Shown: positions 4,122 to 35,824, numbered from the stretch's first letter. The stretch is 64,000 nt of DNA from Candidatus Aalborgiella aggregata (GCA_016705065.1 JADIYY010000002.1:149545-213544), one strand, 5' to 3'. The notes: a model not told the origin generated them from the letters alone. Program-made: numbers and translations.

Positions 4122-5723
4122 CAAGGCCGTATAGTCATTTTTCGGTTGCTGCGTGATTTGGTTAAGGCTGCCTGATTCAACAATTTCACCATTTCGCATC
4201 ACCAACACTTGGTGCGCCATAGCGCGAATGACGTCAATGTCGTGTGTGATGAGCAAATAACTTAAGCCACGCTCTCGTTGCAAACGCTGCAGCAATTGCA
4301 AAACTTGCTTTTGAATCGTCACATCCAAGGCACTGGTGGGTTCATCCAGTACCAAAATTTGTGGCTCCACGATCAAGGCACGGGCTATGGCTATGCGCTG
4401 GCGCTGACCACCCGAAAACTCATGCGGATAGCGTGACAATAAATTGGGAAACTGCGCTTCCGACAAACCAACCTCGTGTAAGGCTTGCAGCACCTTGGTT
4501 TGGCTTTGTACCTGATTGAATTCAGGTGCATGTACCAACAAGCCCTCACCCACCAATTCAGAAATGGTCATGCGTGGCGAGAGTGAAGAAAACGGGTCTT
4601 GAAAAACAACTTGCACCACCTTACGCAAACCTTTGTCTTGTGCTTTTCCTTGTCCCCAGAATTGACCATTGATTTGCAAATGTCCTTTAGAGGCTTGCAA
4701 ACCCAATGCAGCCAATGCCAATGTCGTCTTACCAGAACCAGATTCACCGATGACACCCAATGTTTGTGCTGGTTGCAATTCAAAATTAGCATGTTTAACA
4801 GCAACAAACTCACCCTTTTTAAACCACCCTTTGACGCCTGTCAGTGGTGCGGGGTAGCTGACACACAGATCCTTGGCTTGCATACTGGGCTGCTGGGTAA
4901 CGGTTGTGTTTTGGTCCTGCTGATTGATGACTGCGGAACTTTCAAGCACATCACGTACGGGCTTGCTGTCCAACAATTTACGGGTATAGGCGTGTTGTGG
5001 GTTGGCAAAAACATCACTGACAGTGCCTTGCTCGACGATGTGACCACCTTCCATCACAATAATGCGATCGGCAAACTTGCGCACCAAGTTCAAATCATGC
5101 GTGATCAACAATACCGCCATGCCGTTTTGTTTTTGTAGGCCTGATAGCAATTCCAAAATCTGCAATCGCAAGCTCACGTCCAGCGCAGTGGTGGGTTCAT
5201 CGGCTAACAACAATTTTGGCTGACAAGCCAAGGCCATGGCGATCATGGCACGTTGGCGTTGGCCACCACTCAATTGGTGCGGATACGACTTGGCGCATCG
5301 TTCAGGATCAGCGATACCTGTAGATGCTATCAATTTAATTGCAGTATAGGCAATATCTATACCAGATACAGCCTGCTTTTGTTCTAAAACTTCAGCAATT
5401 TGATTGCCGATGGTGAATAACGGATTCAAAGCCGTCATAGGTTCTTGAAATATCATGGCAATGTCGCGTCCACGTATGTCGCGCATTTGCTGTTCAGAAA
5501 TTTGAAGCAAGTCGATGCTTTGTGCGCCTCTGAATGTTGCTGAACCACTCAACTGCGCATTCAGTGCCAAGCGCAACAAGCTCAGCGCCGTGACTGTTTT
5601 ACCTGAACCCGATTCACCCACCAATGCCACACGCTCGCCAGCTTTCACTGCAAAGTTGATGCCATGAACAACCGCTTTGTTGCCAAAGGATACGGTTAAA
5701 TTTTGAACGTCGAGTAAATTCAT
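4110..5723 (-). CDS. yejF: ABC transporter ATP-binding protein with duplicated ATPase domains (YejF/microcin C-type peptide importer)
   Basis: Two Walker A motifs (GESGSGKT twice) and two LSGGQRQR signatures. Follows yejB and yejE in the same operon. Confidence 0.9.
5325..5385 (+). repeat. Dispersed hairpin repeat, copy J (inside yejF coding sequence)
   Basis: tgctatcaatttaattgcagtataggcaatatctataccagatacagcctgctttt aligns with the other copies. On the minus strand it translates to [19 protein letters not shown]. Confidence 0.8.
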
Positions 5724-6772
5724 TTTTCAACTTTGCGCGGATCTAAGGCATCTCTTAAAGCATCACCCATGAATGTCAGCAACATCAATGTAATGACCAA
5801 CACGCCAAACGTTGACAGCGAAATCCACCATGCGTCAATGTTGTTTTTACCTTGTGCCAACAGTTCACCTAAGCTAGGCGTTCCAGGCGGTACACCCAAA
5901 CCTAAAAAGTCCAAAGATGTCAGTGCCAAAATTGCACCACTCATGCGAAAGGGTAAAAACGTGACAACCGGCGTCATACTGTTGGGCAATACATGACGTT
6001 TGATAATTTGCCAATTGCTCACGCCTAAGGCACGTGCTGAACGCACATAATCCATTTGACGGTTGCGCAAAAATTCAGCTCGCACATAGTCTGACAAGCC
6101 CATCCAGCCAAACAGACTGAGCAAAATCAGCAACAAGGCCAAGCTTGGTGAAAACACTGCACTGAAAATAATAAGCAAATACAACTCAGGCATGGCACCC
6201 CAGATTTCAATAAAGCGTTGAAATGCCAAATCCGTTTTACCGCCATAAAAACCTTGTATGGCACCTGTGATAACTCCCAAAACCGTACCCACAATGGTGA
6301 GCGCCAGGGCAAACAGCACACTGACACGAAAGCCATATAAAAGCTGCGCCAATAGGTCACGACCTTTGTCATCCGTACCCAACCAGTTTTCACCTGAGGG
6401 CGCAGAGGGGTTGGGTGTGCTGGCGAAATAATTCAGTGTTTGTGCGCCATAGTGGTTGATTGGGAAAACTGCCCAATTGCCATCGCTTGACAATTTTTGC
6501 TGAATCAGAGGATCTAAATAATCGGTAGGCGTTTCAAAATCGCCTCCAAAAAATGTTTCCGGGTAATCTTTCAATATTGGAAAGTAATAGCTCTGTTTGT
6601 AGTGCACGAGCAAAGGTTTATCGTTGGACAAAACTTCTGCAAACAAGCTCAAAAATACCAATACACAAAACACCACAAAGCTGTAAAAGCCCAAACGATT
6701 ACGTTTAAAACGTTGCCAAGCACGACTGCTTGGTGAATTATTCAAACTTGACACGTGGGTCCACCCAAACAT
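5720..6772 (-). CDS. yejE: ABC transporter permease (YejE-type)
   Basis: Multi-TM BPD-transporter permease with a 4-bp overlap onto yejF. The exact start is uncertain: in-frame GTG at 6754 or TTG at 6745 would shorten the overlap with yejB. Confidence 0.85.
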   Translation of the reverse strand: MFGWTHVSSLNNSPSSRAWQRFKRNRLGFYSFVVFCVLVFLSLFAEVLSNDKPLLVHYKQSYYFPILKDYPETFFGGDFETPTDYLDPLIQQKLSSDGNWAVFPINHYGAQTLNYFASTPNPSAPSGENWLGTDDKGRDLLAQLLYGFRVSVLFALALTIVGTVLGVITGAIQGFYGGKTDLAFQRFIEIWGAMPELYLLIIFSAVFSPSLALLLILLSLFGWMGLSDYVRAEFLRNRQMDYVRSARALGVSNWQIIKRHVLPNSMTPVVTFLPFRMSGAILALTSLDFLGLGVPPGTPSLGELLAQGKNNIDAWWISLSTFGVLVITLMLLTFMGDALRDALDPRKVEK

Positions 6773-7757: not shown

Positions 7758-7831
7758 GAAGAAGATTCTACTTCGTCATTTAAGGGACAATATACGACTT
7801 ACATTGATAACCATCTAACATAATTACTTCT

Positions 7832-9025: not shown

Positions 9026-9049
9026 TCGTTATAGTTAGCATCGTTAGAT

Positions 9050-10132
9050 ATGACACCGTCCACTTTGTTGACTTCTTTGCCGCGCTACATCTCCATCGCC
9101 GGTCCGACGGCATCGGGCAAAACGGCTGCCGCACTGGCCATTGCAGAGCATCTCAAAACCCGTATTCAGGTAGAGATCATCAGTGTTGATTCGGCTTTGG
9201 TGTACCGTGGCATGGACATTGGCACGGCCAAACCGACCGCTGCCGAGTTGGCCGTTGTACCGCACCACCTCATTGATATTCGCGACCCCATAGAAGCCTA
9301 TTCAGCCGCAGAATTTGTGAAAGACGCGACGCGTTTGATCAAGGAAATCACCGCACGCGGCAAACTGCCAGTGCTGGTGGGTGGCACCATGTTGTATCTC
9401 AAAGTCCTGTGGCACGGTTTAGATGACATGCCCGCTTCTAACCCCAGTATTCGTGCGAACATCGAACGCGAAGCCGCTATTACAGGCTGGCCAGCGATGC
9501 ACGCACAGCTCGCCCAGGTCGATGCCATTACTGCGGCACGATTAAAGCCCAATGACGCACAACGCATTCAGCGCGCACTAGAGGTGTACCGAATAACTGG
9601 TAAGCCGCTGTCCTCTTTTCAAACCGCTTACCGTGATACAGCGCCAAGCGCTATAAATTCAATAGCACCTCAGGCAATTAATACGCCGGCTATAGGCCAA
9701 AAAGACCATTATTTTTCTGAGAACAACAGCAATCCACTTTTCATCTCACTTGAACCGCAGGACCGTGCTTGGTTGCATGCGCGCATTGCACTGCGTTTTG
9801 ATGCCATGCTGGAGGGCGGATTTGAGCAAGAAGTGCGTGCATTGCGCGCCAGAGCCGATTTGAGCATTGACACCGCTTCAATGCGCTGCGTGGGTTACCG
9901 CCAAATGTGGGAAGCGCTGGATACTTTGAAAGATGGTGCGATGGATGCAAAAACCCTGCAAGACTTGCGCGACAAAGGCATTGCCGCCACGCGCCAACTG
10001 TGCAAGCGGCAATTGACATGGCTGCGCTCTATGCCCCAACGCCAAGCGATTGCTTGCGATGCACCCGATGCGCTTGCACAAGTATTGCAAGCAGTGGATA
10101 CTTGGGTGCAAACTGATGTGCAAACACATTAA
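9050..10132 (+). CDS. miaA: tRNA dimethylallyltransferase, carrying a repeat-derived in-frame insertion
   Basis: P-loop GPTASGKT and [16 protein letters not shown] motifs are present. At 360 aa it is about 40 aa longer than typical MiaA. Confidence 0.93.
9649..9720 (+). repeat. Dispersed hairpin repeat, copy A (in frame inside miaA)
   Basis: cgctataaattcaatagcacctcaggcaattaatacgccggctataggccaaaaagaccattattttt. It encodes [23 protein letters not shown]. Confidence 0.85.
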
Positions 10133-10156: not shown

Positions 10157-10894
10157 ATGAAGCCAAACGAATTGTTAAGTCTCGCCAAATTCAACAAAAA
10201 CGCTATACAAAAAATAGTATTCTTGGCAGTATTCATGCCGGCTACAATCACTTTTTGCCATGCTGCGAGCTTGACGGTGAATGTGACGGACAAAGATGGC
10301 AAGGCGACGCCCGATGCGGTGGTGATGATCAGCACCAGCAGCGTATCGTCACCCAAAAACCCACTGCCCAAAGCTGCCACCATTGCACAAACCAATATGC
10401 AGTTTTTGCCTGCAGTGACGGTGGTGCAGCCGGGCAGCAAAATCACCTTCACCAACAACGACCCTTGGGACCACCATGTGCGCGGCTCAGCTGCGGGTGC
10501 GGCACAGTTTGGTAAGAACGATGAAAACGGCTTTGCATTGCGACTGGCGGGTAAATCAGTGTTCGGTGCTGCCAAATCCAGTGTGGTGAACATGGACAAA
10601 CCTGGCGTGGTGCTATTGGGGTGTCACATCCATGGCTCTATGGTGGGGCATGTGGTGGTGAGCGACACGCCTTGGGCTGTTAAAACCGATGCCAATGGCA
10701 ATGCGGTGTTTGCCGATTTGCCAGATGGCGCTGCCACCGTCAAAGTGTGGCATGCTGCGCAATACATCGATTTGAAACCTGTACCAACCACACTGGGCGC
10801 AACGCCTGGCCAAATCAAAATGCAATTGACGGTGACACCACCGCCACGTCGTGCGCCGGCCAAACCGTCTGAATACGATAAATCAGTCGGGTAA
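10157..10894 (+). CDS. Secreted cupredoxin-like protein (often annotated 'methylamine utilization protein')
   Basis: Has a signal peptide. C-terminal motif GCHIHGSMVGHVVV has amicyanin-like C-x2-H-x2-M spacing, and there is an upstream His pair (DPWDHHV). Confidence 0.6.
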   Translation: MKPNELLSLAKFNKNAIQKIVFLAVFMPATITFCHAASLTVNVTDKDGKATPDAVVMISTSSVSSPKNPLPKAATIAQTNMQFLPAVTVVQPGSKITFTNNDPWDHHVRGSAAGAAQFGKNDENGFALRLAGKSVFGAAKSSVVNMDKPGVVLLGCHIHGSMVGHVVVSDTPWAVKTDANGNAVFADLPDGAATVKVWHAAQYIDLKPVPTTLGATPGQIKMQLTVTPPPRRAPAKPSEYDKSVG

Positions 10895-11813: not shown

Positions 11814-11880
11814 TGCTATATTATTAATAGCAAATTATGCAACAAATACGCCGGCTAGATGCCAATTTACTCACTAACTA
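11814..11880 (+). repeat. Dispersed hairpin repeat, copy B (map-glnD spacer, overlapping the glnD start)
   Basis: tgctatattattaatagcaaattatgcaacaaatacgccggctagatgcc. The glnD ATG (11837) lies inside it. Confidence 0.8.
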
Positions 11881-14431
11881 TCGGGATAAAAAGCAAATTA
11901 TCGGCAAACCTTTGCTGGTCAATTCCGCTTCCAGCCGTGGTGTAGCTGCGAATTTGCGCAAGCTGTCAAATCTGGCAGACGAAACACTGAAAACCTTGTG
12001 GCGCAGAGCCAATATGCCTGCAGATTTTGCTTTGCTGGCTGTGGGCGGTTTTGGTCGTGCGCAGCTATTCCCCCATTCAGACATTGATGTGCTCTTGCTA
12101 TTGCCCGACCACGCCAAACCGGAAACCGATGCGCTGCTGACACAAAAAATTGAATCGTTCATCAGCAGCTGCTGGGACAGTGGTTTAGAAATTGGTTCGT
12201 CAGTGCGCAATGTGGCCGACTGCGTGGCGCAAGCGGCAGGTGATGTGACGGTGCAAACCAGTTTATTGGAATCGCGCCTGATAGTCGGCAACAAAGGGCT
12301 TTATGCCACGTTTTTAGACGCTTTCAGAGACAACTTAGACCCTAAGGCATTCTTCGTGGCCAAAACCTTAGAAATGCGGCAACGGCATCAAAAGTTTGAA
12401 AACACACCCTACTCGCTGGAACCCAATTGCAAAGAATCACCCGGTGGTTTGCGCGATTTGCAAATCATATTGTGGGTGGCCAACGCAGCGAACTTGGGTA
12501 AAAACTGGGACGACTTGGCAAAAAATGGCTTGGCCACGCCGTTTGAAGTCAAGCAAATCAAAAGCAACGAAGCCACACTGAATTTAATACGTGCCCGCTT
12601 GCACAGCTTGGCACAAAGGCGCGAAGATCGTTTGGTTTTCGATCTACAAACAGTTGTCGCAGAATCATTCAATTACAAAAACGACAGCTCCAAATCCAAC
12701 AGCAGAGCCAGCGAACAACTGATGCGCCGCTACTACTGGGCTGCTAAAGCGGTGACGCAATTGAACCAGATTTTGCTGCTGAACATTGAAGCGCGCTTGA
12801 ATCCCAACACGCAAGATGTTCGCCCTATCAACGATTACTTTGGTGAAAAAGCAGGCATGTTGGAAGTGCTGCGCGACGATGTGTACACCCAGCACCCGCA
12901 TGCCATTTTGCAAACGTTTTTGCTGTACCAAACCACGCTGGGCATCAAGGGTCTATCCGCCCGCACCTTGCGCGCTTTGTACAACACACGCGAGGTGATG
13001 AACACCGCGTTTCGCAAAGACCCGGTGAACCGCGCCACCTTCATGGCGATTTTGCAGCAGCCTGAGGGTTTGACCCACGCCATGCGGCTGATGAACCAAA
13101 CATCGGTGCTGGGGCGCTATTTGTGGGTGTTTCGCAAAATTGTGGGGCAGATGCAGCATGATTTGTTCCACGTTTACACCGTTGACCAACACATCTTGAT
13201 GGTGCTGCGCAATATGCGGCGCTTTTTTATTCCTGAGCACGCGCATGAATACCCGCTGTGTTCGCAATTGGCTGCAGGTTGGGACAAGCCTTGGATTTTG
13301 TACACCGCTGCGCTGTTTCACGATATTGCCAAAGGCCGCGGTGGCGACCATTCGGCCTTGGGGCGCTTGGAAGTGCGTACCTTTTGCAAGCAGCATGGCA
13401 TTGACAAAATAGACACCAAGCTGATTGAGTTTTTGGTGGCTGAACATTTAACCATGAGCCAAATAGCGCAAAAACAAGACATGAGCGACCCCGATGTGGT
13501 CAACACATTTGCCAAGCGTGTGGGCAACGAACGTTATTTGACGGCTTTGTATCTGCTGACCGTGGCAGATATACGCGGCACATCACCCAAAGTATGGAAT
13601 GCATGGAAAGGCCGGCTCTTTGAAGATGCCTACAAAAGCACACTCAAAGCACTGGGTGGCCGCACGCCCGATGTGGACGCCCAAGTGCAAAGCCGCAAAG
13701 ACGATGCATTGGTGAATTTAGCCTTGCACGCCCAGCCTTTTGAAAGCCATAAAGTGCTGTGGGACACCTTGGATGTGAGCTACTTTATGCGCCACGATGC
13801 AGACACCATTGCGTGGCACACGCGTCAATTGTCGCGCCATGTTGGACAGAGCAAACCCGTGGTACGCGCCCGCACATCGCCCGTGGGTGAAGGCTTGCAG
13901 GTTGTGGTGTACACACCTGACCAAACTGATTTGTTTGCGCGCATTTGCGGATATTTTGACCAAGCCGGATTCAGCATTTTGGATGCCAAAGTGCACACCA
14001 CCAACGATGGCTGTGCGATAGACACCTTCCAAGTCGTCACTGCAAGTTTGCCAGAGCATTACCAAGAGTTGTCCAGCATGCTGGAGTTTGATTTGGCCCA
14101 CACCATTGAAGCGCAAGACACACTGCCTACACCTTCACGTGGCCGTGTTTCACGCCGTGTTAAAAGCTTTCCCATCACACCCAGGGTTGAACTCACCCCC
14201 GACGAAAAAGCCCAGCGCTGGCTGCTCAACATCTCCGCCAGCGACCGCACAGGTTTGTTGTACCGCATCGCATTGGTGTTGGCACGCTACAAGCTCGATT
14301 TGCAACTCGCCAAAATCACCACATTGGGCGAACGCGTTGAAGACACCTTCCTCATCACAGGCGCATCGCTGCAGCAAAACAAAGCGCAGATTGAGATTGA
14401 GACAGCGTTATTAGAAGCGATTGCGGATTAA
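11837..14431 (+). CDS. glnD: [protein-PII] uridylyltransferase / uridylyl-removing enzyme
   Basis: 864 aa. Nucleotidyltransferase motif GGFGRAQLFPHSDIDVLLL, an HD domain (LFHDIAKGRGGDH) and two C-terminal ACT-like regions. The start codon is uncertain because it lies within the repeat. Confidence 0.93.
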   Translation: MQQIRRLDANLLTNYRDKKQIIGKPLLVNSASSRGVAANLRKLSNLADETLKTLWRRANMPADFALLAVGGFGRAQLFPHSDIDVLLLLPDHAKPETDALLTQKIESFISSCWDSGLEIGSSVRNVADCVAQAAGDVTVQTSLLESRLIVGNKGLYATFLDAFRDNLDPKAFFVAKTLEMRQRHQKFENTPYSLEPNCKESPGGLRDLQIILWVANAANLGKNWDDLAKNGLATPFEVKQIKSNEATLNLIRARLHSLAQRREDRLVFDLQTVVAESFNYKNDSSKSNSRASEQLMRRYYWAAKAVTQLNQILLLNIEARLNPNTQDVRPINDYFGEKAGMLEVLRDDVYTQHPHAILQTFLLYQTTLGIKGLSARTLRALYNTREVMNTAFRKDPVNRATFMAILQQPEGLTHAMRLMNQTSVLGRYLWVFRKIVGQMQHDLFHVYTVDQHILMVLRNMRRFFIPEHAHEYPLCSQLAAGWDKPWILYTAALFHDIAKGRGGDHSALGRLEVRTFCKQHGIDKIDTKLIEFLVAEHLTMSQIAQKQDMSDPDVVNTFAKRVGNERYLTALYLLTVADIRGTSPKVWNAWKGRLFEDAYKSTLKALGGRTPDVDAQVQSRKDDALVNLALHAQPFESHKVLWDTLDVSYFMRHDADTIAWHTRQLSRHVGQSKPVVRARTSPVGEGLQVVVYTPDQTDLFARICGYFDQAGFSILDAKVHTTNDGCAIDTFQVVTASLPEHYQELSSMLEFDLAHTIEAQDTLPTPSRGRVSRRVKSFPITPRVELTPDEKAQRWLLNISASDRTGLLYRIALVLARYKLDLQLAKITTLGERVEDTFLITGASLQQNKAQIEIETALLEAIAD

Positions 14432-14451
14432 ATACCGAATCTGATTGTGGT

Positions 14452-15203
<752 letters not shown>

Positions 15204-15229
15204 ACTTGATGTGCATACAAAGCAATAGC

Positions 15230-18394: not shown

Positions 18395-18424
18395 CAGTAC
18401 AGTAGAGATAGCGCGCTCTTAAGC

Positions 18425-18492
18425 AAAAATATATGGAAAATTTGGCTGTAGCCATTGTTTTGATTGCCTATGCCGCTATTATATTCATAGCA
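18425..18492 (-). repeat. Dispersed hairpin repeat, copy I (reverse orientation, convergent GNAT/zipA spacer)
   Basis: The reverse complement reads tgctatgaatataatagcggcataggcaatcaaaacaatggctacagccaaattttccatatattttt. Confidence 0.85.
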
Positions 18493-18525
18493 ATTAAGAT
18501 ATTTATAAAAGTACCACAGTCACAT

Positions 18526-19632
18526 TTAAGAAAACAAGCGGCGCGCAAGAACGGATCCTGCACTCAGATCGCGTTGGTCTAAGGTGGCGTAAAGCTGATT
18601 CAAATCGGCTGCGATGCGATCTAGCGCGGCTTCTGATACTTGGTTGCCTTGGTCATCGCAAATCACACCTTCCATGCGGTCAGCCAATGTTCTGGCGCAT
18701 TCGCGCATGCGCGCGAATGCATGCTCTTCTTGTGCGACATGGGTTACATCCAAACTCAAGGAGACTTCACCAATGGCAGTCGGTGGCCCTTCTTCGTCAG
18801 ACATAGCCGCTTGCGAATCAAAGGACAAGGACAAGATGGGTGCTTGATTGGGTTCTTGATCAGGCAACACCATGCGGCCTGGTAATGCACCAGCCACAAA
18901 GCCCAAACGCGCGGCTTGTTGAGATACATAACCAGTGCTCCATGCAGCACCCACTGCATAAATAGTGAAACGCAAATGCGCATCATGGTTGCTGGCAAAA
19001 ATGTCTAGCTCACGCGCACGTGCTACTTCGTCGCGCATTTCGGGGAAGGTTGGTGTACCGCCCACTTGATCTGCAAACGCTTGTACCTTGATGACAAATT
19101 CAGAGTATTCAATTTCATTCAAAGCGCCGGTGCGGTTAGCCAGCTGCACGCCCGCTTGCAATGCGCTGTACCTTTCGCCAATTTGCGGCACTTCCCATTG
19201 TTCTGTGACTTCACGCAGTCCTTCGATTGCAAAAGGTTTACTGCCAACGCGCCTGGTTGCGGGCAGCGCCGCTAAAACAGCATCGCCAGAAACCGTTTCG
19301 TCCAAAGCAATGGGGGTAATGACATCAATTAAAGGATCCAGACTGGCTTTTTTGTCATTGCTTTGTGCGAATTCAAACGGTACTGGCAAGTCATTGTGAA
19401 ATGCATCCGGATCAAAGCTTGGCTCGATATGCCGCTCATCACCGTCAATCGCGATATCTTTCAAAACGGGCAAGTTGTCACGGCTTGATGTCATGGCGTC
19501 AGGGATTGCGTTTAAATCTTCAGGATCAGCCATTTTGGGTGTCGCTTTACGTGCCGTCCATGCGCCGTGTGCCACGACGCCTGCCAAAACCACACCGCCT
19601 GCGATGCTCAATGCAATCAATAAACTGTTCAT
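18526..19632 (-). CDS. zipA: cell division protein ZipA (betaproteobacterial type)
   Basis: N-terminal single TM segment (MNSLLIALSIAGGVVLAGVVAHGAW), an acidic or unstructured linker and a C-terminal globular domain. It holds the conserved position between smc and ligA. Confidence 0.75.
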   Translation of the reverse strand: MNSLLIALSIAGGVVLAGVVAHGAWTARKATPKMADPEDLNAIPDAMTSSRDNLPVLKDIAIDGDERHIEPSFDPDAFHNDLPVPFEFAQSNDKKASLDPLIDVITPIALDETVSGDAVLAALPATRRVGSKPFAIEGLREVTEQWEVPQIGERYSALQAGVQLANRTGALNEIEYSEFVIKVQAFADQVGGTPTFPEMRDEVARARELDIFASNHDAHLRFTIYAVGAAWSTGYVSQQAARLGFVAGALPGRMVLPDQEPNQAPILSLSFDSQAAMSDEEGPPTAIGEVSLSLDVTHVAQEEHAFARMRECARTLADRMEGVICDDQGNQVSEAALDRIAADLNQLYATLDQRDLSAGSVLARRLFS

Positions 19633-23204: not shown

Positions 23205-23261
23205 TGAATTCCCTGTAATTTAGGGCTTGATTTTACCTGAGTGCGCAGCTTGGTGCAAAGG

Positions 23262-24246
<985 letters not shown>

Positions 24247-24250
24247 CCTT

Positions 24251-25480
24251 ATGAACCCCTTGCTAGCCAAATTACAGCCCTACCCTTTCGAGCGATTGAA
24301 GCAACTCTTTCAATCTGTCACCCCCAACCCCGCTTTCAATCCCATCAGTTTGGGAATTGGCGAGCCCAAGCACACAACGCCTGAATTCATTAAAACCGCT
24401 TTGACCAATTCCTTGGCAGGTCTGGCCAGCTATCCGGCTACTTTGGGCGAACCCAAACTTCGCGAATCATTCACTACATGGTTGCACAAGCGTTATGGCA
24501 TTGATGTGAATCCAGTCACCCAAGTTCTGCCCATCAATGGCTCACGTGAGGCCTTGTTTGCGTTCACACAGGTAATCGTGAACCCACAACAAACAACTGT
24601 GGAGAATGGTGTATCTCAGCCGCCTATCGTTCTGTGCCCCAACCCTTTTTATCAAATCTATGAAGGCGCAGCCTTGTTAGCTGGTGCTGAGCCTTATTAC
24701 GCCAACAGCGACCCTGCGCGCAATTTTGGTGTGGATTGGCAAAGCGTGCCAACCAGTGTTTGGCAACGAACACAAATGATTTTTGTCTGCTCGCCTGGCA
24801 ATCCTGCAGGAGCAGTTATGCCTTTGTCAGAATGGAAAGTGCTGTTTGAACTGTCTGATCAATATGGGTTTGTGATTGCCAGTGACGAGTGCTACAGCGA
24901 AATTTACTTCCGTGATGATGTGCCCCCGCCCTTGGGTGGCTTGGAAGCAGCGGCCAAATTGGGACGAAAAGATTTTAAAAATATCGTTTCATTCACCAGC
25001 CTTTCCAAACGCAGCAATGTGCCCGGTATGCGCAGTGGATTTGTAGCGGGTGATGCCGACATCATGAAAATGTTTGCTTTATACCGCACTTACCACGGCA
25101 GTGCCATGAGCCCGGTTGTGCAGACTGCCAGCATCGCTGCATGGAACGACGAAAACCACGTGATTGAAAATCGCGCTTTGTACAGAGATAAATTCAAGCA
25201 AGTGACGCCCCTCTTGGCAGAAGTATTGGAGGTATCCTTACCCGATGCTGGGTTTTACTTATGGGCAAAAATCCCCACAAAGTTACGTTTAAGCGACACC
25301 GAATTCGCCGCAGCCTTGTTGGCACAATACAATGTAACTGTATTGCCAGGCAGTTATTTGGCACGTGAGTCGCAAGGCGTCAATCCGGGAGAGCAATTTA
25401 TCCGTATGGCTTTGGTGGCCGGCAACACCGAATGCCTAGAAGCAGCACAACGCATCGTGTCATTTGTGAAATCACTGTGA
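24251..25480 (+). CDS. dapC: succinyldiaminopimelate transaminase
   Basis: Starts MNPLLAKLQPYPFERLKQLF, the typical betaproteobacterial DapC N-terminus. PLP-lysine context is SLSKRSN. dapD follows. The ORF-track start at 23930 is a low-complexity artefact. Confidence 0.9.
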   Translation: MNPLLAKLQPYPFERLKQLFQSVTPNPAFNPISLGIGEPKHTTPEFIKTALTNSLAGLASYPATLGEPKLRESFTTWLHKRYGIDVNPVTQVLPINGSREALFAFTQVIVNPQQTTVENGVSQPPIVLCPNPFYQIYEGAALLAGAEPYYANSDPARNFGVDWQSVPTSVWQRTQMIFVCSPGNPAGAVMPLSEWKVLFELSDQYGFVIASDECYSEIYFRDDVPPPLGGLEAAAKLGRKDFKNIVSFTSLSKRSNVPGMRSGFVAGDADIMKMFALYRTYHGSAMSPVVQTASIAAWNDENHVIENRALYRDKFKQVTPLLAEVLEVSLPDAGFYLWAKIPTKLRLSDTEFAAALLAQYNVTVLPGSYLARESQGVNPGEQFIRMALVAGNTECLEAAQRIVSFVKSL

Positions 25481-27645: not shown

Positions 27646-28830
27646 ATGCCAAGCGCACTGCACCTTGCTGAACAACTCATTTCACGACCTTCTGTGACGC
27701 CCTTGGACGCAGATTGTCAAAGACTCATTTCTGAACGCCTCATCCCGATTGGCTTTGTGTGCGAAACCATCGAAGGTGGCCCAGCTGATTTTCGTGTCAT
27801 CAATCTTTGGGCAAAACGCATTGGCAGTGCGTCTGTGCAAGCCACAAAAATGCTGACATTTGCAGGACACACCGATGTGGTTCCGACGGGGCCCCTGGAA
27901 AAATGGACCAGCAACCCATTTGTACCGACGCATCGAGATGGCAAGCTGTTTGGGCGCGGTACCAGCGACATGAAAACATCCATCGCCGCATTTGTTGTGG
28001 CTGTAGAAGAGTTCTTGAAATCGAAGCCAAACCCCGCCTTGTCTTTGTCTTTTTTAATCACCAGCGATGAAGAAGGCCCATCTGTAGATGGCACTGTAGT
28101 GGTTTGCGAAATACTCAAACAACGTGGCGAAAAATTGGACTACTGCATTGTGGGTGAGCCCACATCCGTTGAGCGCACGGGTGACATGGTGAAAAATGGC
28201 CGACGTGGAACCATGAGCGGCAAGCTCACCGTGCACGGGGTTCAAGGCCACATTGCCTATCCGCATCTGGCCGATAACCCTATACACAAATTAGCGCCTG
28301 CTCTGGCGCAATTGGTTGCGATTGAATGGGATAAAGGCAATGCTTACTTTCCACCGACAACATGGCAGATCAGTAATTTGCACAGTGGCACGGGTGCGAG
28401 CAATGTGATACCAGGCCAAGCAGTGATTGATTTTAATTTTCGCTTTTCAACCGAATCGACACCCGAATCATTACAAACACGTTTATTGAATGTGCTGCAA
28501 TCATGCGGACTGGTTTCAGGGAAAGACTTTGACATAGCTTGGACAGTGGGCGGCTTGCCCTTCTTGACGCAGCCAGGTGATTTGATGACAGCTGTGCAAA
28601 CAGCCATTCGTACCGAAACCGGATTAGAGACCCAACTATCGACCACTGGCGGCACATCTGATGGAAGATTCATCGCCAAAATTTGTCCTGAAGTGATTGA
28701 ATGCGGTCCACCCAATGCCAGTATTCACAAAATTGATGAGTACATTGTGGTGGCCGATATTGAGCCATTGAAAAACATCTACCGCCGCATTCTTGAAAAC
28801 CTAGAAGCCAATTTGCATACCGGTGCATGA
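27646..28830 (+). CDS. dapE: succinyl-diaminopimelate desuccinylase
   Basis: M20 peptidase motifs [15 protein letters not shown] and SDEEG. Sits in a dap gene cluster. Confidence 0.93.
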
Positions 28831-29801
28831 ACACGACGATGCAAGAAAGCTGGGCTCAACCTTTAACGGTGACAGAAGCCATAGAAAAAGGCGCTCAGTT
28901 ACTGACCAAAGCCGGCGTATCTTTCGGACATGGCACATTGAACGCTTGGGATGAAGCTGCTTGGTTGGTGCTGTGGCAATTGGGTTTACCTCTAGATACG
29001 CCTCTAGATACGCCTTCTGACACGCCTTTAAATGCCAATACTGAAAGCGCTGATTCAAACAATATTTATATACAAAATCAGCCTGTATCCGGCCTAGATA
29101 TTGCCAAGATTGCTATACTTTTTGAAGCACGTATCACAACACGCAAACCCGCTGCGTATTTGACGCAAGAAGCTTGGTTGCAAGGCGTTCCTTTTTATAT
29201 CGACGAACGCGCCATCGTACCGCGCAGCCACATTGCACAACTGTTAGCGGACGGCAGTTTTGATGATTGGCTGGGGCCGCACACGCAACAGGTTTTGGAC
29301 ATGTGCACTGGCAATGGCAGTTTGGCTGTATTGGCAGCGATGACCTACCCAGAAACCCATGTGACAGGCGCAGATATCTCCTTCGATGCATTGGCGGTGG
29401 CACACATCAACGTTGCCAAACACCACATGCAAAATCGCATCAACTTGATTGAGTCCAACGGCTGGAACGCATTGCAAGGGCAAGTGTTCGATTTGATTTT
29501 GTGCAACCCTCCCTACGTCAACAGCCAAAGCATGAAAGTCCTGCCCTCTGAATATTTGGCAGAGCCCGATTTGGCTTTGGCCGGTGGCTATGACGGCATG
29601 GACTTTATTCGCACCTTCTTTGCGAGTGCCAGTAAACACATGAGTGAGCATGCTGTCATCGTTTTAGAAATAGGCAATGAACGCGACTATTTCGAAAAAG
29701 CCTTTCCCGATTTGGCAGTTGATTGGCTAGAGACAGCAGCGGGATGGGACCAAGTGTTGTTGGTGACAAAAAATGCTTTGCAAAATCACTTGAATCAGTG
29801 A
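28827..29801 (+). CDS. prmB: 50S ribosomal protein L3 N5-glutamine methyltransferase, with repeat-derived insertions
   Basis: NPPY motif (LILCNPPYV), SAM-binding DMCTGNG and IVPRS. 4-bp overlap with dapE. Confidence 0.9.
28989..29024 (+). repeat. 12-bp tandem repeat x3 inside prmB (encodes [12 protein letters not shown])
   Basis: cctctagatacg / cctctagatacg / ccttctgacacg. Confidence 0.9.
29065..29129 (-). repeat. Dispersed hairpin repeat, copy K (reverse orientation, in frame inside prmB)
   Basis: tttatatacaaaatcagcctgtatccggcctagatattgccaagattgctatactttttgaagca matches the reverse complement of the consensus. It encodes [22 protein letters not shown]. Confidence 0.8.
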
Positions 29802-31656
29802 TTTGGCTCAAGTTCTGGCAATTGATGGTGCCAGTAGCGTTGGTTTTCTGCGCGGTGACAGCGCATCTCTTTGGGTTTTGATGACGACCACATGACCGCA
29901 CCACAATGTGGCGAATCTATCACTCGAATTTGTCGGTCTTGGTAGCGCGTCATCACCTCAGGAACTGGGTGTTTGAACCGATTGCGGTAACCCGCTTGCA
30001 CAATGCCAAAGTCTGGTTTCACGGCATCCAAAAAAGGTGTGCTGGATGACGTTTTGCTGCCATGGTGTGGCACCAAGAGCACTGTGCTTTGCAAAGACTC
30101 AGGCAAATCAAGCGCATCCGCCAGCAATCGAAGTTCCTGAGATTGTTCAATGTCAGCAGTCAGCAAAACGCTGCTGCCTTTTCCATTTTTGTCCGTGGTC
30201 GCACTCACACCCTTGTTGCTGATACGAAGTACACAGCTCAAGGCATTGGGCTTTTGCGGGGTGTTGTAGTCCTTTGCCAGTGGGATGCAACACTGCAAAG
30301 TCAACACCATCCCATTGCCACTTTTGTCCTGCTTCGCAGCGTGTGGCCGGTTTGATGTTTTGCAGTTCATTACTGGATTCAACCGAACTCACAAACTGTG
30401 CAGCTGGGTGACTGGCCAATACCGATTTGATGCCACCTGCATGATCGCTGTCGCGGTGGCTCAACATCACCATGTCAAGCCGTTCGCCCATGGCACGCAA
30501 TAGCGGCACCAACACACGATGCCCTGCATCACTTTCTACCGAATAGCGTGGCCCTGCATCGTAAAGCAGTGAGTGATTTTGGGTGCGTATGACGACCGCA
30601 TTGCCTTGTCCGATATCAGCCGCCAGCAGTTCAAACTGTCCTGACTCGGGTCGGGGGGCTTGCCACAGCAACACAGGCAACAGCAACGACAAACCCAATG
30701 CGCCCAATTTCCACTGCCATTTTCGATTTTGCGCCATGGGCAAAACCAAAAGCAAACCACCCAAAATACCCAACACCGATAGATAAAAAGGCGCAGCAGC
30801 GACTGAAAATGTCGCAAACGGCAGCTTAGACAAAGACGTCAACACCACAGACAAAACCTGCATAGACCACGCAGCGACATCCCAAACCGGTGCAAAGAAT
30901 GCGCCCAATAATGACAAAGGTGTCACCACCAAAGTCACCCAAGGAATGGCCAGCAAATTCGCCAGCAAGCCCACTACTGATACTTGACCAAACAACATCA
31001 TGGTCAATGGTGTTAATGCCAATGTGATCACCCACTGCTCGCGCAACAATGCACCTGATTTTTCAGCAAGCGTCTGAAGTTTCTTAAATACCCAATGCCG
31101 TTCGCCCTGTGCTCGTTGTAGGGAGTGCTGAATGGCTTGATGAAAGGTTTCGACAGACTCAACCTGAACGGCTTTTTGCGAATCCGTTGCTAACTTTTGT
31201 TTATCTGTAGCAAACAACACCGCCACCGCCACAAAGCTCAACCAAAAACCCGCTTGCAGCAAAGCCCACGGGTCAACCACCACCACAATCGCACAGGCCA
31301 TTGTCCAAACCACGTACCACGGCCAGCGATGGCCCGATAGTTTGAGCAAACTCACCGTGGCCAACATCAAAATTGTGCGTTGGGCGGGCACCCCCCAGCC
31401 ACTGAATGCTGCATAGGCTGTCGCCAACAACACACCCCCTACCAAACCAGCAGAGGGTGCAGGAAAATACAAACACAATGTGCTTGACCAGGATTTTCGC
31501 CGCCACAACCAAGCCACCACGCCAGCCGCCACCCAAGCGAACAAGGTGATGTGCAAGCCAGAAATGCTCATCAAATGCGCCACACCGGTTGCGCGAAAAA
31601 TATCCCAATCGGCGCGGTCAATCGCCCGTTGGTCACCCGTCACCAAAGCGGCCACA

Positions 31657-31719
31657 ACGCCCGCGTTGTTAGATGTTACGCCAGCGTTGTTTGATGTTGC
31701 GCCAGCAGAGTTGGAAAAA
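31657..31719. repeat. 21-bp tandem repeat (about 3 units) inside comEC, encoding (A/S)G(A/V)TSNN units
   Basis: acgcccgcgttgttagatgtt / acgccagcgttgtttgatgtt / gcgccagcagagttggaaaaa. The protein reads NSAGATSNNAGVTSNNAGV. Confidence 0.85.
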
Positions 31720-32330
31720 GACAGACGTTCAAAAACCGCATCACGCACTTTGGCTCTCAATCTTTCTATGCTGTACTTCCATGTGTCACCGATCTTTTTG
31801 GGCGGCACATCATTCGCAGTCGCTCGCACATAGCCGGTGGCTTGCACACCTTGTTCCCATTGGTAAAGTTCGTAGTCAAAACCGTGCGGATTGCTGTTGC
31901 CATGAATGGCTTTGAGCCGCACCGTCATTTGCCAGCGTTCGCCTGGCTTGATGGTTTGCGGTTTGCCTTGCAGCTCAAATTGAGGTACAGGCATGGTTGT
32001 TGCGGCTGAAGTGGCTACAGACGTGTTGGCTTCGGTTCGGTATGCGCCGCTGTACCAACTCAGTTCAATCAGCTTTGGCAATTTGACTGCAGTTTCAATT
32101 TCTGCTTGCTCGACTGCGAACCGAAACCGCAAACCCACTTCACTTTGTTGCGGCATGGCGGCAACGATGCCTGTCACTTGAATGTCTTTGCCCTCCAGTT
32201 CAGCGGGCAAGGCTTGCGCGCTGTACACACTGGCACGCCAACCAGTGACACCAAACGCCATACCGGCCAAGGCCATGCTAAGTATGCTGACATGCAGTGG
32301 TGGAAAGCGCTTTATCCACGTATTTTTAAT

Positions 32331-32397
32331 TGCTATATATTTAATAGCACTATAGGCAATCAATACGCCTGATACAGCCGAAATAGCCATATATTTA
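32331..32397 (+). repeat. Dispersed hairpin repeat, copy C (in frame in the comEC N-terminal region)
   Basis: tgctatatatttaatagcactataggcaatcaatacgcctgatacagccgaaatagccatatattt. It encodes KYMAISAVSGVLIAYSAIKYIAIKN. Confidence 0.85.
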
Positions 32398-32499
32398 TGG
32401 ATATCAAACAATATCGGCTGCCACAGCTGCCCAGCGCTGCCCAAGACCCATGCCAGCAAACTGGGCATCATGTTTGTCGCCCAATATTTAGCCGACTAT

Positions 32500-33807
32500 T
32501 TAGCCTAATAGCGCGGCTTTTTTCCATGTTTGCGCAGCGATGTCCAACTCGCCACGCTGCTCTGCCAATTCAGCCAATGCGATCCATGCTTGGTGCTGCA
32601 AAGACTGGTTCTCAGAACTTGTTAAGCGCGGCGCAGCCAATTGCAATAGTTGTTGCGCCTTGCCCCATAATTTGCGTGCTTTGCAAGCCATGCCAGCCAA
32701 ATACTGCAAACGCGCATCGCGTGGGTTGTTGATTTGTGCTTGCTCTATTTTGGCAAACCAGTTGTCGTCCATCGCCGTCAAAGTGGCTTGCATGGTTTGC
32801 ACCAAAATCACTTGGCTTGTAGCAGTCAACTCCGGTGCACCAGCCACCATTTTGTCCCAAGCTGGCAGCAACCAGGTGCGGATTTGCTGTGCATCACCAT
32901 CCAATTTGGCCAAGCAACTGGCAGCATGAATGGCGATATCGGCTTGCTTGCGTTCATCCGCATCCAAACCGCGCCAGACGGTTTGCAACTGCGCCACATC
33001 ATGCGCATCGCTTAACATGCGTGTAACCAAACTGCGCAACAGACTTTCCGATGCGGTGTTTGAAAAAGCACGGTGTTTGGCCAGCAAACGCGTGGTCTCT
33101 AAAGCGACACTCAAGGAGTGCGCATTGAAATGATCGAGTTGCGAAGCTTTCAGTTTCAAACGCAAAGCCGCTGTGCGACGTGCAGCACCCTGCGATAAAA
33201 CATTGAGCCAACGCAAAGCGCCTGCCGCATCGCGGTCGTCTAACGCCCATTGAGCTGCCAACATTTGCGTGCCTTCGCGGGTTTCTTGCGAGGCTTTGGG
33301 GTTGTTGTGTTCCAAGGCCAAATTCAAATGCTCATCCCGCACCACTTTGTCTTGCAACGCATGCGCACTCTGTGCCACCATCACATGCGCCAACGCACGC
33401 AACTGGGGCGCATTTTCAAGTCGGCTGTCTGAGTTCTTAGATCCAAGTACATCGCCCATGGCTTTGTCCATGTCCAAAGCTGCCAATGCTGCTTTGCGGG
33501 CACGCAAATAACGACCCGCCATGAAATGCGATTGCGCATTGAACAAATGCGCATTCAAAGCGCGCTCTTTTTGCAAACTGCGCCATTGTTTGGCTTGCTT
33601 GGGTAAAGCAAACAACACCGATAAAGCACGCAGAGCAAAGTACAGCAGCACAAAGCCAGTTACCAATAGGGCAATCGCAAAGTTCAAGGACACATCGACC
33701 CGATGGGGCGGCCAGAAAATCGTCACCGTTGCATCGTTGTTACCTGCAAACAAGGCGCTTAACACGGCAATCGAAAAAATTGCTAAAAACCAAAGTGCGG
33801 TACGCAT
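32500..33807 (-). CDS. hemY: HemY-like protein (heme biosynthesis-associated, TPR-containing membrane protein)
   Basis: N-terminal double TM segment (MRTALWFLAIFSIAVLSALF...). It is the last gene of the hemC-D-X-Y cluster. Length is 435 aa. Confidence 0.8.
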   Translation of the reverse strand: MRTALWFLAIFSIAVLSALFAGNNDATVTIFWPPHRVDVSLNFAIALLVTGFVLLYFALRALSVLFALPKQAKQWRSLQKERALNAHLFNAQSHFMAGRYLRARKAALAALDMDKAMGDVLGSKNSDSRLENAPQLRALAHVMVAQSAHALQDKVVRDEHLNLALEHNNPKASQETREGTQMLAAQWALDDRDAAGALRWLNVLSQGAARRTAALRLKLKASQLDHFNAHSLSVALETTRLLAKHRAFSNTASESLLRSLVTRMLSDAHDVAQLQTVWRGLDADERKQADIAIHAASCLAKLDGDAQQIRTWLLPAWDKMVAGAPELTATSQVILVQTMQATLTAMDDNWFAKIEQAQINNPRDARLQYLAGMACKARKLWGKAQQLLQLAAPRLTSSENQSLQHQAWIALAELAEQRGELDIAAQTWKKAALLG

Positions 33808-34989
33808 TTAACGTCCTGCCGCCGCCACAGTCAATGCGGCCAAAGATTCTTCCAAACCAGGAATCGATAGGTTCGCCAACTGTGCTTGTGATTGCTGCAA
33901 CAAACCCAATGCTTGCTTTGCAGCGGGCGCACTTGCGTCTGTATACTTGCGCAAATCGGCGTTGACCATTGCCAAGTCCGATTTGGCACTGCCGAACTGG
34001 CGGCTCAACACACCCATGCGTGCATTGAGCACCCGCAGCTTCATGTTTTCGCGCAAGAAGAAGGTTTGCTCAGGTGACTGCAATACTGCATCCGGGTGCG
34101 CGATTTGGCTCACACGCACCAGCTTGCCCGATTCTGCACGCACTGCCAACCAAATTTGTTGCAGCCACGCTGAGACTGTGTTTTGCAGGTCATTCGCGAC
34201 ACTGGCCGTCTTGGTTGGCTTGATGTCCTTACCAGCATTGCTGCCAGTTGCTTGACCACTCTCAGACTTTGCAAGTGGTGATGCGGCTGTGTCGGCTTGT
34301 TTGGATCCCACCGCATTGCTGGCTGGTAGCGTATCGATCAATTGCGTTAATTCGTCTAACTTGCCCATCAAATTCGGTACGTCAGTCACTGTGGCGGCTT
34401 TGATGCGCTGTGCATCGTTGCTCAAGGCGCGTTTTACTGTGTTCAGGCGTGGTTGGGCTGATTTGGCTAAACGCACATCGGCCGATTTCAGCGCAGCCAA
34501 AAGCGGCTCCACACTGCCGGTTAACTGAGCTTGCTGTTGTGCCAGTCGCAAGGCCGATTCAATGTCCACCACCAAATTTTCATCACGCGAACGCGACAGG
34601 CTTTGCATCAACTCGTCCAACTGGCTGCGTTGCAAAGCCACTTCACTCAATTTGGTTTCGTTCAATGACGATCTGGCCACTGCTTCACGCGCCAGTTCTT
34701 GCGCGTTTTTGGCCAAGCTGCGCGCTTCGATGCTAATGGTACTGGCATCGGCACTTTGGCGCGCCAAATGTTCTTGAATGCCATTCAATTTACGCCACAA
34801 ATAGGCTGTGGCCAATATGGATATTGCCAATGCCGCTATGGTTGCGATAGCAAGTTTGGGATATTGACTGAATACATTGCGCCCTGCAAACTGATTGGCA
34901 GACCCCATCGTTGCAGCCTTATCGGTGACTGCATCTTGCTCAGGAGATGGATTGTCTGAATGTGCGGGAATTTGGGCGGCTTCGGTCAT
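33808..34989 (-). CDS. hemX: HemX-like protein (annotated uroporphyrinogen-III C-methyltransferase family)
   Basis: The start I chose (MTEAAQ..., 34989) makes an ATGA overlap with the hemD stop. Has a single TM segment followed by a long coiled region. The ORF-track start at 35118 would overlap hemD by 130 nt. Confidence 0.75.
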   Translation of the reverse strand: MTEAAQIPAHSDNPSPEQDAVTDKAATMGSANQFAGRNVFSQYPKLAIATIAALAISILATAYLWRKLNGIQEHLARQSADASTISIEARSLAKNAQELAREAVARSSLNETKLSEVALQRSQLDELMQSLSRSRDENLVVDIESALRLAQQQAQLTGSVEPLLAALKSADVRLAKSAQPRLNTVKRALSNDAQRIKAATVTDVPNLMGKLDELTQLIDTLPASNAVGSKQADTAASPLAKSESGQATGSNAGKDIKPTKTASVANDLQNTVSAWLQQIWLAVRAESGKLVRVSQIAHPDAVLQSPEQTFFLRENMKLRVLNARMGVLSRQFGSAKSDLAMVNADLRKYTDASAPAAKQALGLLQQSQAQLANLSIPGLEESLAALTVAAAGR

Positions 34990-35824
34990 ACCAGTGATTC
35001 TATAGAAGTCACCACATCGGAAAGCAGCGGGCGTGACTCGCAAACAACACCAAAACCCACTCGTCTGGCCGCTTCTGCAATGCGCGGGTGTGTCGCAATG
35101 GCTTTGGATTTTGACCAATCGATTTGTTTCGCTGCGTTGTGCAAATTGTCAATCGCCTCAGAACTGCTGAACAACCAAACCGACCCATCGCGGCTGGCTT
35201 CTGCAATCCATGCCATTTGCTCAACAGTAAACACAGGCGCACGTCGCTCGTAACTCACCACCGTGTCAACTTGCACGCCTGCACTTGTGAGCTGGTCTGC
35301 CAACCAAGGACGGCCATTCATTAGGGTTTCATTCTCGACAGAGCTTTGTTGTGTGGTGCCGCGAACGATGAGCACCCGATCGCCCGCTTTGACTTGGCCG
35401 CGCACACGTTCCCACAAAGCTTCAGAATCAAATTGCGCAGCATCATTCGCTGGCGCATCAATCAAATGGGTAGCTATGCCTGCTGCCAACAATGCTTTGG
35501 CGGTACCAGGTCCAGTAGCCCAATAGCGCGGTGTTTCAATTGACTGATCGCTTAATGCTATATTATTGATAGCACTGTAGGCAATATTTACGCCGGCTAC
35601 AGCCTGATTTTTCATATAAAAATGGCGCACAGCGTTGCTGCTGACAAACATGATGGCAGCGTAGTGTGACGCATTGTCTCTGCAACAGCATTTGCGACCA
35701 CTTGAGAGTCTTTTGCAGCAGCAATTTCAATCAATGGCAAGGCGATGGCATCTAAACCTTTGGCTTGCAACTGTGCCACCCAAGTTTGCGCTTCTGCCAG
35801 CGGTCGGGTGACGATGACTTTCAT
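34986..35824 (-). pseudogene. hemD: uroporphyrinogen-III synthase HemD, frame interrupted (N-terminal ORF 35612-35824, C-terminal ORF 34986-35651) and carrying a repeat insertion
   Basis: The N-terminal ORF begins MKVIVTRPLAEAQTW. The C-terminal ORF contains the conserved MFVSSNAVRHF motif. The frames differ by +2/-1 at the cacac (plus-strand gtgtg) site 35664-35668. Confidence 0.8.
35556..35620 (+). repeat. Dispersed hairpin repeat, copy D (in frame inside hemD)
   Basis: tgctatattattgatagcactgtaggcaatatttacgccggctacagcctgatttttcatataaa. It encodes FYMKNQAVAGVNIAYSAINNIALSD. Confidence 0.88.

Follow-up and report, generated by a model that had tools for sequence, protein, structure and literature searches.

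The 64,000-nt stretch of Candidatus Aalborgiella aggregata DNA analyzed here (GCA_016705065.1 JADIYY010000002.1:149545-213544) harbors 11 strong copies of a short dispersed repeat, five of which lie in open frame inside unrelated protein genes. This whole stretch is referred to as the window, its coordinates are counted from its first letter, and L-numbers denote the relatives and metagenome loci with which it was compared. A repeat search of the window revealed a family of sequences starting with TGCTAT at positions 5325, 11814, 32331, 35556, 42456, 55212, and 57392, plus a member at 9650. In the same sequence a 39-nt consensus pattern matched five times and a 23-nt core pattern 13 times, compared with 0.00 and 0.39 matches expected. 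An nhmmer profile made from the 11 window copies gave expect (E) values of 2e-14 to 3e-18 for the strong copies, all below 1e-13, and the decoy control was clean, the best score in 834 kb of reversed sequence being E = 6.5. The copy density is about one per 6 kb (11 in 64 kb).

Four of the genic copies are read in one common frame, termed frame A, which is the reverse complement of the TGCTAT orientation. The yejF copy (5325–5390, plus strand, E 2e-14) lies in a minus-strand gene at 4110–5723 and encodes 22 residues, approximately 112–133 of YejF, while the prmB copy (29062–29129, minus strand, E 1e-14) lies in a plus-strand gene at 28827–29801 and encodes 23 residues, 79–101 of PrmB. The comEC copy (32331–32399, plus strand, E 1e-17), within a minus-strand gene at 30153–32471, encodes KYMAISAVSGVLIAYSAIKYIA (residues 25–47), and the hemD copy (35556–35624, plus strand, E 3e-18), within a minus-strand open reading frame (ORF) at 34986–35651, encodes FYMKNQAVAGVNIAYSAINNIA (residues 10–32 of the ORF). 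The fifth copy, in miaA (9649–9716, plus strand, E 2.5e-15; plus-strand gene at 9050–10132), is read in the forward frame F1 and provides 23 residues, 200–222. A preliminary description of this DNA had quoted element peptides for YejF, PrmB, ComEC, and HemD in a single reverse-complement frame and one of opposite sense for MiaA, and had stated that the ORFs stay open across the element; every quoted peptide was found exactly, that of MiaA in the forward orientation, and all five frames are open, with the caveat that hemD is split by a frameshift upstream of the element (see below).

Six further copies lie between genes or across the start of a gene. One covers the 5′ end of glnD (11814–11882, plus strand, E 6e-15) and another between recA (42536–43651) and recX (41949–42470) (copy at 42456–42520, plus strand, E 2e-16). 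Two are flanked by convergent genes, at 18424–18492 (minus strand, E 1.5e-15) and at 48420–48488 (minus strand, E 9e-16), the latter adjoining a terminator-like hairpin. The remaining two are located in a divergent promoter region (55212–55275, plus strand, E 5e-14) and 3′ of the gene at 56434–57279 (57392–57459, plus strand, E 3e-18). The 18424–18492 copy is open in frame A, in which a possible small hydrophobic ORF of 50 codons spans 18430–18580 (MENLAVAIVLIAYAAIIFIAIKIFIKVPQSHLRKQAARKN...); this ORF may be spurious or a new small membrane protein.

The consensus of the family, TGCTATAtATTTAATAGCAaatTAGGCAATaAATACGCCGGCTAcAGgCcaATTTttCATATAaat, was derived from 73 in-register intergenic copies of a metagenome scan and is 66 nt long with about 30% GC. 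The unit consists of a (T)GCTAT-N7-ATAGC(A) inverted repeat followed by a conserved core, TAGGCAATaAATACGCCGGCTAcAG, and an AT-rich tail, with conservation setting in abruptly at TGCTAT and fading past about position 66. The arms GCTAT and ATAGC, which would form a stem of 5–6 bp, are nearly invariant in 166 copies, and no compensatory changes in the hairpin occur among them. Because the arms and core are nearly invariant without compensatory changes, conservation concerns the sequence rather than a fold. A profile of 68 copies revealed no terminal inverted repeats, only a single subterminal 5′ hairpin with no inverted match at the 3′ end, and no consistent target-site duplication, the best k-mer signal being a 3-mer in 12 of the 68 copies. 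Rfam gave no match at any copy, either at the gathering threshold or at E ≤ 0.5; folding of six copies in both orientations yielded only the small hairpin, with a z score of about −1; and a promoter and terminator scan of four intergenic copies showed no consistent signal. No tandem arrays were seen, the element being single at each site.

The host is a betaproteobacterium, and its metagenome-assembled genome (MAG) relatives are Comamonadaceae and Polaromonas-like. The relatives found through ComEC, YejF, and PrmB are MAGs of about 50% GC labeled Polaromonas sp., Burkholderiaceae bacterium, or beta proteobacterium, and intergenic as well as genic copies are present in every low-GC relative that was fetched (L001, L004, and L006–L012). 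In the metagenome scan at least 120 contigs carry the family, with a median GC fraction of 0.507 among the matches listed; those matches comprise 134 copies, 109 intergenic (about 80%) and 25 (19%) intragenic, the latter lying within open frames that are 450 nt or longer. Relics also occur in higher-GC relatives, L134 (57% GC) having a full copy in its hemD gene and L136 (71% GC) a diverged copy between genes. Outside the window the genic hosts include dapE, purL, truB, glmU, sbcB, metH, nuoG, pepN, rlmD, and others. No description of the 66-nt family was found in the literature searched, an absence that is not proof of novelty.

Use of the reading frames by genic copies is strongly skewed. 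The 25 genic metagenome copies among the matches listed distribute as 12 in F1 (in hosts that include NuoG, GlmU, SbcB, MetH, and PepN), six in A (in hosts that include HemD, YfiH, and RlmD), three in B, one in F0, and three others. Thus, the frame shared by the four window genes, to which the preliminary description had drawn attention, is indeed common to them but is not unique, F1 being used twice as often as A in this sample. The same description had offered purging of the other frames as one explanation of the bias. However, of the 73 intergenic copies, 12 are stop-free in A, 19 in B, 24 in F0, seven in F1, and none in C or F2, and the excess of A and F1 in genes (binomial P = 2.5e-5) is accompanied by a deficit of F0 (P = 8e-5). 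Because B and F0 are open more often than A yet are rarely used in genes, stop-codon purging by itself does not explain the bias and was rejected; frame choice therefore reflects the peptide that is tolerated, or the way in which copies arise, and not merely the lack of stops. One strong F2 copy was seen, in a metagenome MutS gene (L037, 1167–1233, E 3e-10), where extensive changes in the hairpin part leave the frame open; in every intergenic copy F2 contains one to four stops.

The symmetry of the palindrome relates the two favored frames to each other. Each reads it as GCT-ATx-xxx-xxx-ATA-GCx and, because it is symmetric, each gives Ala-Ile..Ile-Ala. Most intergenic copies are stopped in both: 70% of them have TTA or CTA before GGCAAT, triplets that are read as TAA or TAG in frame A and that create TAG in F1 when joined to the next G. 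Genic frame-A copies instead show a sense codon here, either ATA (Tyr) or another, and genic F1 copies have TCA (Gln). The encoded peptide also differs among hosts, in that the hydrophobic segment GV(L/F)IA becomes G(I/L/V)(D/N)I(A/S) in soluble proteins while ComEC keeps the hydrophobic form.

Comparison with relatives shows that whole units are gained or lost. In dapE the unit is absent from the window, L001, and L004, while L010–L012 have 18–24 additional residues (NPLAGVFNASTAINNVA) in frame A. The HI0933-like flavoprotein of L004 has 23 additional residues in frame B, and the window gene is without the unit. GlmU from a metagenome contig contains a loop insertion of 17 residues relative to solved GlmU structures. 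In MiaA of the window, residues 206–232 (27 residues) are unaligned against E. coli MiaA (2zm5) and constitute an insertion in a variable loop; this loop has 43, 32, and 26 residues in the window, L006, and L007, respectively, the L006 and L007 versions being trimmed. TruB of L009 has gained 16 residues, L008 retains half an element with a net gain of 0, and purL carries two different insertions. In HemD the loop from FVSxNAV to GPGT, which holds the element after the FVSSNAV motif, has 38 residues in the window. Among 150 representatives many such loops have 18–23 residues, a large class has 27, and those that are repeat-like have 33–39; these representatives were used because the hits of a PDB sequence search with HemD were too divergent for placing the loop. 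The in-frame insertion proposed in the preliminary description by analogy with Rickettsia palindromic elements (RPEs) is thus borne out for dapE, the flavoprotein, GlmU, MiaA, and HemD; YejF and ComEC show no gain in length, and PrmB fits in part.

The presence or absence of whole units in homologous genes also bears on the view that the genes contain no repeat at all and that the segments are ancestral protein sequence or chance resemblances. On a profile shared with the six intergenic copies, the five genic copies reach E values of 2e-14 to 3e-18, and the decoy search was clean, so that for these five named copies this view is refuted, and overall we assign it a negligible probability. What it has in its favor are weaker matches that could be native Ala/Ile-rich helices. 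Two such stretches occur in the window, one in the membrane anchor of HemX (LAIATIAALAISILATAYLW; 34788–34852, minus strand, E 4e-5, and also present in L004 with E 7e-6) and one in the signal peptide of a cupredoxin-like protein (ORF 10157–10894; stretch at 10202–10260, plus strand, E 1.7e-4). Both are ambiguous and may be old copies or native helices of this kind, and the same ambiguity attaches to a transmembrane helix of DsbB (L130, E 5e-8) and to the strand that precedes the H-loop in an ABC protein (L049).

In three genes of the window the element is accommodated with little or no change in protein length. The 22 element-coded residues of YejF align residue for residue with M. tuberculosis Rv1281c, which is 1 residue longer, and with M. 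tuberculosis DppD, which is 2 residues shorter, and in PDB alignments that are gapless except for these 1–2 residues they correspond to the helix that lies between Q-loop and signature motif. All of the best 120 orthologues (73–100% identity) have the same length and the architecture K..(A/L)(A/S)G....A..AI.LIASTGI, and their DNA is repeat-like to a varying degree (E 9e-14, 6.5e-3, 1.5e-5, and 2.5e-7), the strength of the match not tracking protein identity. In ComEC the distance between the anchors QLxQ and AFG is 60 residues in the window and 59 in the Rhodoferax MAG L002, and alignment with L001–L004 places the element peptide exactly on transmembrane helix 2. Though near the N terminus, this copy is internal, because the upstream transmembrane helix 1 is conserved in the same four relatives. 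In L002 the corresponding comEC DNA is identical to the consensus at 32 of 66 positions, in register. A search with the N-terminal 150 residues of ComEC returned only three close hits and no new outgroups.

PrmB presents an intermediate case. Its element-coded part aligns without gaps on the helix that precedes RxPxxY in T. maritima HemK, the C-terminal two-thirds of the element peptide forming the helix before the RxPxAYL motif. In the AlphaFold2 model this helix spans residues 89–105 with a predicted local distance difference test score of 88–91, and the element-coded residues 89–101 are ordered and follow a disordered DTP-rich loop. The pattern N.P(V/L)AG..IA..A.LF is present in all of the best 120 orthologues; L011 has a near-perfect element at the site, and the copies of the window and L004 have a consensus-like left end that those of L001 and L010–L012 are without. 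Just upstream of the copy, a short tandem duplication (28990–29060) encodes 11 residues that are absent from L001 and predicted to be disordered. Outside the window, PepN from a metagenome contig is only 4 residues longer than Neisseria PepN. In these oldest copies the element, as judged from the alignments, appears now to stand where a native helix stood. None of the best 120 orthologues of yejF or of prmB has a site free of repeat-like sequence, and the state before the element is therefore not visible. Homologous residues in distant taxa, which the preliminary description had named as a sign of ancestral protein sequence, thus do exist in part for YejF, ComEC, and PrmB, although the DNA at these sites is unmistakably repeat-like.

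The native length of the yejF segment raises the question of whether the family was born there, from a fragment of a host gene. Under such a scenario the yejF segment, or alternatively the hemD loop, would be native and all other copies derived from it. Consistent with this, Q, G, and A..L residues of the segment are common to Rv1281c and DppD, the segment is present in every yejF orthologue recovered, and the hemD loop is element-like even in genomes of 71–75% GC. However, an origin in one gene accounts for that gene only, and same-length copies are found in several; most intergenic copies are stopped in frame A; and the rare codons of the yejF segment are atypical of native genes. We regard an origin from a host gene as very improbable.

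Taken together, these data are best explained by a non-autonomous repeat, resembling both repetitive extragenic palindromic (REP) sequences and RPEs, that is gained and lost as a unit, is filtered when it enters genes, and sometimes replaces a native helix, an explanation in which we have somewhat more confidence than doubt. As part of that explanation, and at the strength of the whole, the family would be one of roughly 66-nt dispersed repeats of about 30% GC in Comamonadaceae, very abundant in the ~50% GC Polaromonas/Rhodoferax-like clade. Most copies would settle between genes and some in coding DNA, where a copy would be kept only if it is free of stops and its peptide is tolerated. The two favored frames, one per strand, would supply Ala-Ile-x-x-Ile-Ala arms within an Ala/Ile/Val/Gly-rich, helix-prone peptide, and one nucleotide before GGCAAT would set the frame, ATA opening A, TCA opening F1, and the common TTA or CTA closing both. 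Over time the insertions would be trimmed and their residues ameliorated, as when Asp/Asn takes the place of Leu/Phe in soluble hosts. For the oldest copies, those in yejF, comEC, and prmB, the element helix would have replaced the native helix with little or no net change in length, most likely by insertion followed by a compensating deletion. Copies would in addition donate start codons.

Several observations weigh against this explanation. No transposase or other mobilizing partner was identified, though RAYT and Y1 enzymes were not searched for, and with no such partner, no terminal inverted repeats, and no target-site duplications, mobility is deduced from presence and absence only. An exactly compensating 66-nt deletion after insertion in at least two genes, yejF and comEC, is not parsimonious. 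The element residues of YejF, PrmB, and ComEC show 22–33% in-register identity to the native helices of distant homologues, above what is expected of foreign sequence. Between distant orthologues the identity at third codon positions reaches 16–17 of 22 inside the element, compared with 37–51% in 100 flanking codons, and the rare codons ATA, GTA, TTA, and GCT are kept better in genic copies than in their flanks. Finally, hemD retains an AT-rich island in three relatives of 71–75% GC, where GC at third positions is 33–37% in the 27-codon loop compared with 87–93% elsewhere in the gene. The in-register identity, the conservation of third positions and rare codons, and the hemD island are not predicted by simple neutral decay of an old insertion.

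The length and register of these copies raise the alternative of templated patch replacement. Here, single-stranded repeat DNA would anneal at replication forks to coding DNA that resembles it, that is, to helices written GCT-ATx..ATA-GCx, and overwrite the helix in register, in a process akin to SPDIR (short-patch double illegitimate recombination) or homeologous conversion that would also hold old genic copies near the family consensus. The unchanged length of YejF and ComEC, the gain of only 4 residues in PepN, the residual in-register identity to native helices, and the partial match of L002 comEC to the consensus are all as such replacement would have it, as are the consensus-like third positions of genic copies, the lack of correlation between repeat signature and protein identity in yejF, and the consensus-like left end confined to the prmB copies of the window and L004. 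SPDIR is moreover a documented mechanism, but one that is extremely rare in wild-type cells (bioRxiv 10.1101/2023.11.22.568220). In addition, no recent replacement was caught between close relatives, clean whole-unit insertions occur too, and the yejF copies are mostly nearer to the consensus than to each other, which plain divergence also explains. We consider this route unlikely. A broader proposal, to which we give slightly more credence while still holding it to be rather improbable, is that the repeat, besides inserting, overwrites native helix segments in register by templated patches and that its consensus is kept by DNA-level selection or by re-templating. If this were true, the repeat would rewrite conserved parts of proteins, namely an ABC-ATPase helix, transmembrane helix 2 of ComEC, and a PrmB helix, with no change in length, and would leave AT-rich islands in genes of relatives with 70–75% GC.

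The codons of the genic copies point to a constraint that acts on the DNA or to concerted evolution. Each yejF copy shares 60–72% identity with the consensus, and the two that lie farthest apart, those of the window and L008, share only 59% with each other, overall values that would be expected from divergence of a consensus-like ancestor. At the third codon positions within the element, however, all five yejF orthologues are 59–73% identical to the consensus, all five encode the second-arm Ile by ATA and four of the five the first-arm Ala by GCT, while in the genome ATA makes up 11% of Ile codons and GCT 19% of Ala codons. Neutral decay of genic copies was rejected on these grounds, fitting the overall identities but not the third positions or the rare codons, which suggest DNA-level constraint, or else concerted evolution or recurrent re-templating. 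The high-GC hemD loop DNA (CATTTTTTTGAACAAAATCAGGCT...GCTATCAAAAC) resembles the element tail plus the first arm. Such loops follow FVSxNAV in the Comamonadaceae loci L133 (1014–1094), L135, and L136, and the middle of the L133 loop contains an 8-bp inverted repeat, AGCGCTTG-CTGGA-CAAGCGCT. The idea that the AT-rich island is a slippery sequence or an internal promoter was dropped because, as far as sequence can tell, there is no consistent spacing.

A constraint of this kind could mean that the repeat functions as a site in DNA (or RNA), such as one made up of GCTAT-N7-ATAGC plus the core and bound by a dimeric protein, that is needed at high density and held by purifying selection even in genes, where copies would arise or persist wherever a helix can encode the site, by analogy with uptake sequences or REP sites. 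The near invariance of arms and core among the 166 copies without compensatory changes, the conserved rare codons and third positions of genic copies, the persistence of the hemD island in high-GC relatives, and the comEC copy, which is 88% identical between the window and L001 with flanks at 73% and 83%, are consistent with such a site. Yet known uptake or binding sites require much less information than a 66-nt motif contains, and the presence or absence of whole units indicates insertion or deletion, not origin in situ. Moreover, the prmB copies do not preserve the hairpin, the promoter, terminator, and Rfam scans gave no signal, and in the L133–L136 pair the hemD island shows no excess of third-position identity. 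On balance we judge a functional site to be quite unlikely, somewhat more so than patch replacement.

Copies also affect gene starts. The called start of glnD, ATG 11837, lies inside a repeat copy, in a TATGCAAC variant of TAGGCAAT; GlnD of the window, L006, and L007 all begin at the equivalent of this ATG and agree in the first ~15 residues that the element encodes. The only in-frame ATG of recX (42468–42470) falls in the hairpin of its copy. As read from the gene sequences, a copy supplies the called start codon of glnD and probably that of recX.

The hemD frameshift lies about 60 nt upstream of the element (~35680–35700), where the window has 7 nt fewer than L004 and 5 nt more than L102 and contains a GCAGTTGCAGTAGCC-like micro-repeat, and the gene is also out of frame relative to its orthologue in L021. 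As a result of the frameshift, the element-carrying ORF is without the first ~55 codons, the true start being near 35825, and the frameshift marks either a pseudogene or an assembly error. In L004 (MAG CAWJBD010000001.1), frameshifts or stops at homopolymers interrupt comEC and hemD; these are probably long-read errors, and the ORF structure of L004 is therefore untrustworthy. The window itself contains two blocks of ~0.8–1 kb, at 14447–15205 and 23260–24270, composed almost entirely of G or C homopolymer runs. They sit between convergent or divergent genes, glnD/def and smc/aminotransferase, where the same spacers measure 28 nt in L006 and 154 nt in L010, and they yield spurious ORFs and weak microRNA-like Rfam hits. 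These blocks look like assembly or sequencing artifacts.

The closest functional parallels are the RPEs, dispersed and partly palindromic sequences of which many copies lie in frame in unrelated housekeeping genes (Ogata et al. 2000, as cited in PMC10969869). As characterized in PMC10969869, RPEs are ~100–150 bp long and confined to Rickettsia, an obligate intracellular alphaproteobacterium, and share with the present family a palindromic part, in-frame genic copies, open ORFs, a conserved peptide, and apparent compatibility with the host fold. In contrast, the element described here is 66 nt long, appears unrelated in sequence, occurs in free-living Comamonadaceae, is ~80% intergenic, uses two symmetric frames, and in some copies adds no length; host and unit size set it apart from the RPE-1 to RPE-10 families. 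Intragenic enterobacterial repetitive intergenic consensus (ERIC) and other enterobacterial small mobile sequences (Delihas 2007, 2008; PMC2229807) and Coxiella QMITE1 (PMC5896051) are likewise small non-autonomous repeats that lie between and within genes, with open frames and in-frame fusions. These have terminal inverted repeats and mostly target duplications (PMC2229807, PMC5896051), neither of which is present here, and the defining features of miniature inverted-repeat transposable elements accordingly do not occur.

The preliminary description knew of no betaproteobacterial equivalent, but the BRE repeat had been reported earlier, most numerous in Polaromonas sp. JS666 and with some copies wholly within coding sequences (PMC3110155). 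By its description BRE is nonetheless distinct in size, GC content, and arrangement, at ~90 bp, 69% GC, and often tandem (variable number tandem repeats; PMC3110155), compared with the single units of 66 nt and ~30% GC found here. The lack of terminal inverted repeats and target-site duplications, the terminal hairpin, the high copy number, and the mostly intergenic location recall REP/REPIN sequences mobilized by RAYT and palindrome-associated elements derived from IS200/IS605. REPs differ from the AT-rich unit (~30% GC), with its 5–6-bp stem and 19% intragenic copies, in being G+C-rich palindromes of smaller size that mostly lie outside genes and frequently occur in pairs. Uptake signal and DNA uptake sequences resemble the family in being high-density motifs that also occur in genes, with biased frames and DNA-level conservation in coding sequence, but they have cores of 9–12 nt and arise by substitution, unlike a 66-nt unit with whole-unit insertion polymorphisms. 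The element thus works like RPEs and intragenic small repeats and is not a sequence member of any family testable here.

In-frame selfish repeats are best known from the obligate intracellular Rickettsia and Coxiella, and the same behavior is seen here, at high density, in abundant free-living freshwater and cold-habitat Comamonadaceae. For annotation, the element may create start codons, as in glnD and recX, as well as small spurious ORFs. Three features would go beyond the textbook picture of such repeats: a frame set by the symmetry of the palindrome plus one nucleotide; element helices that stand in for native ones with length unchanged; and DNA-level conservation of genic copies, which extends to rare codons and to AT-rich islands within genes of high GC. 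With its many polymorphic and fixed cases in housekeeping genes, the family is a natural system in which to study the absorption of foreign peptides by proteins.

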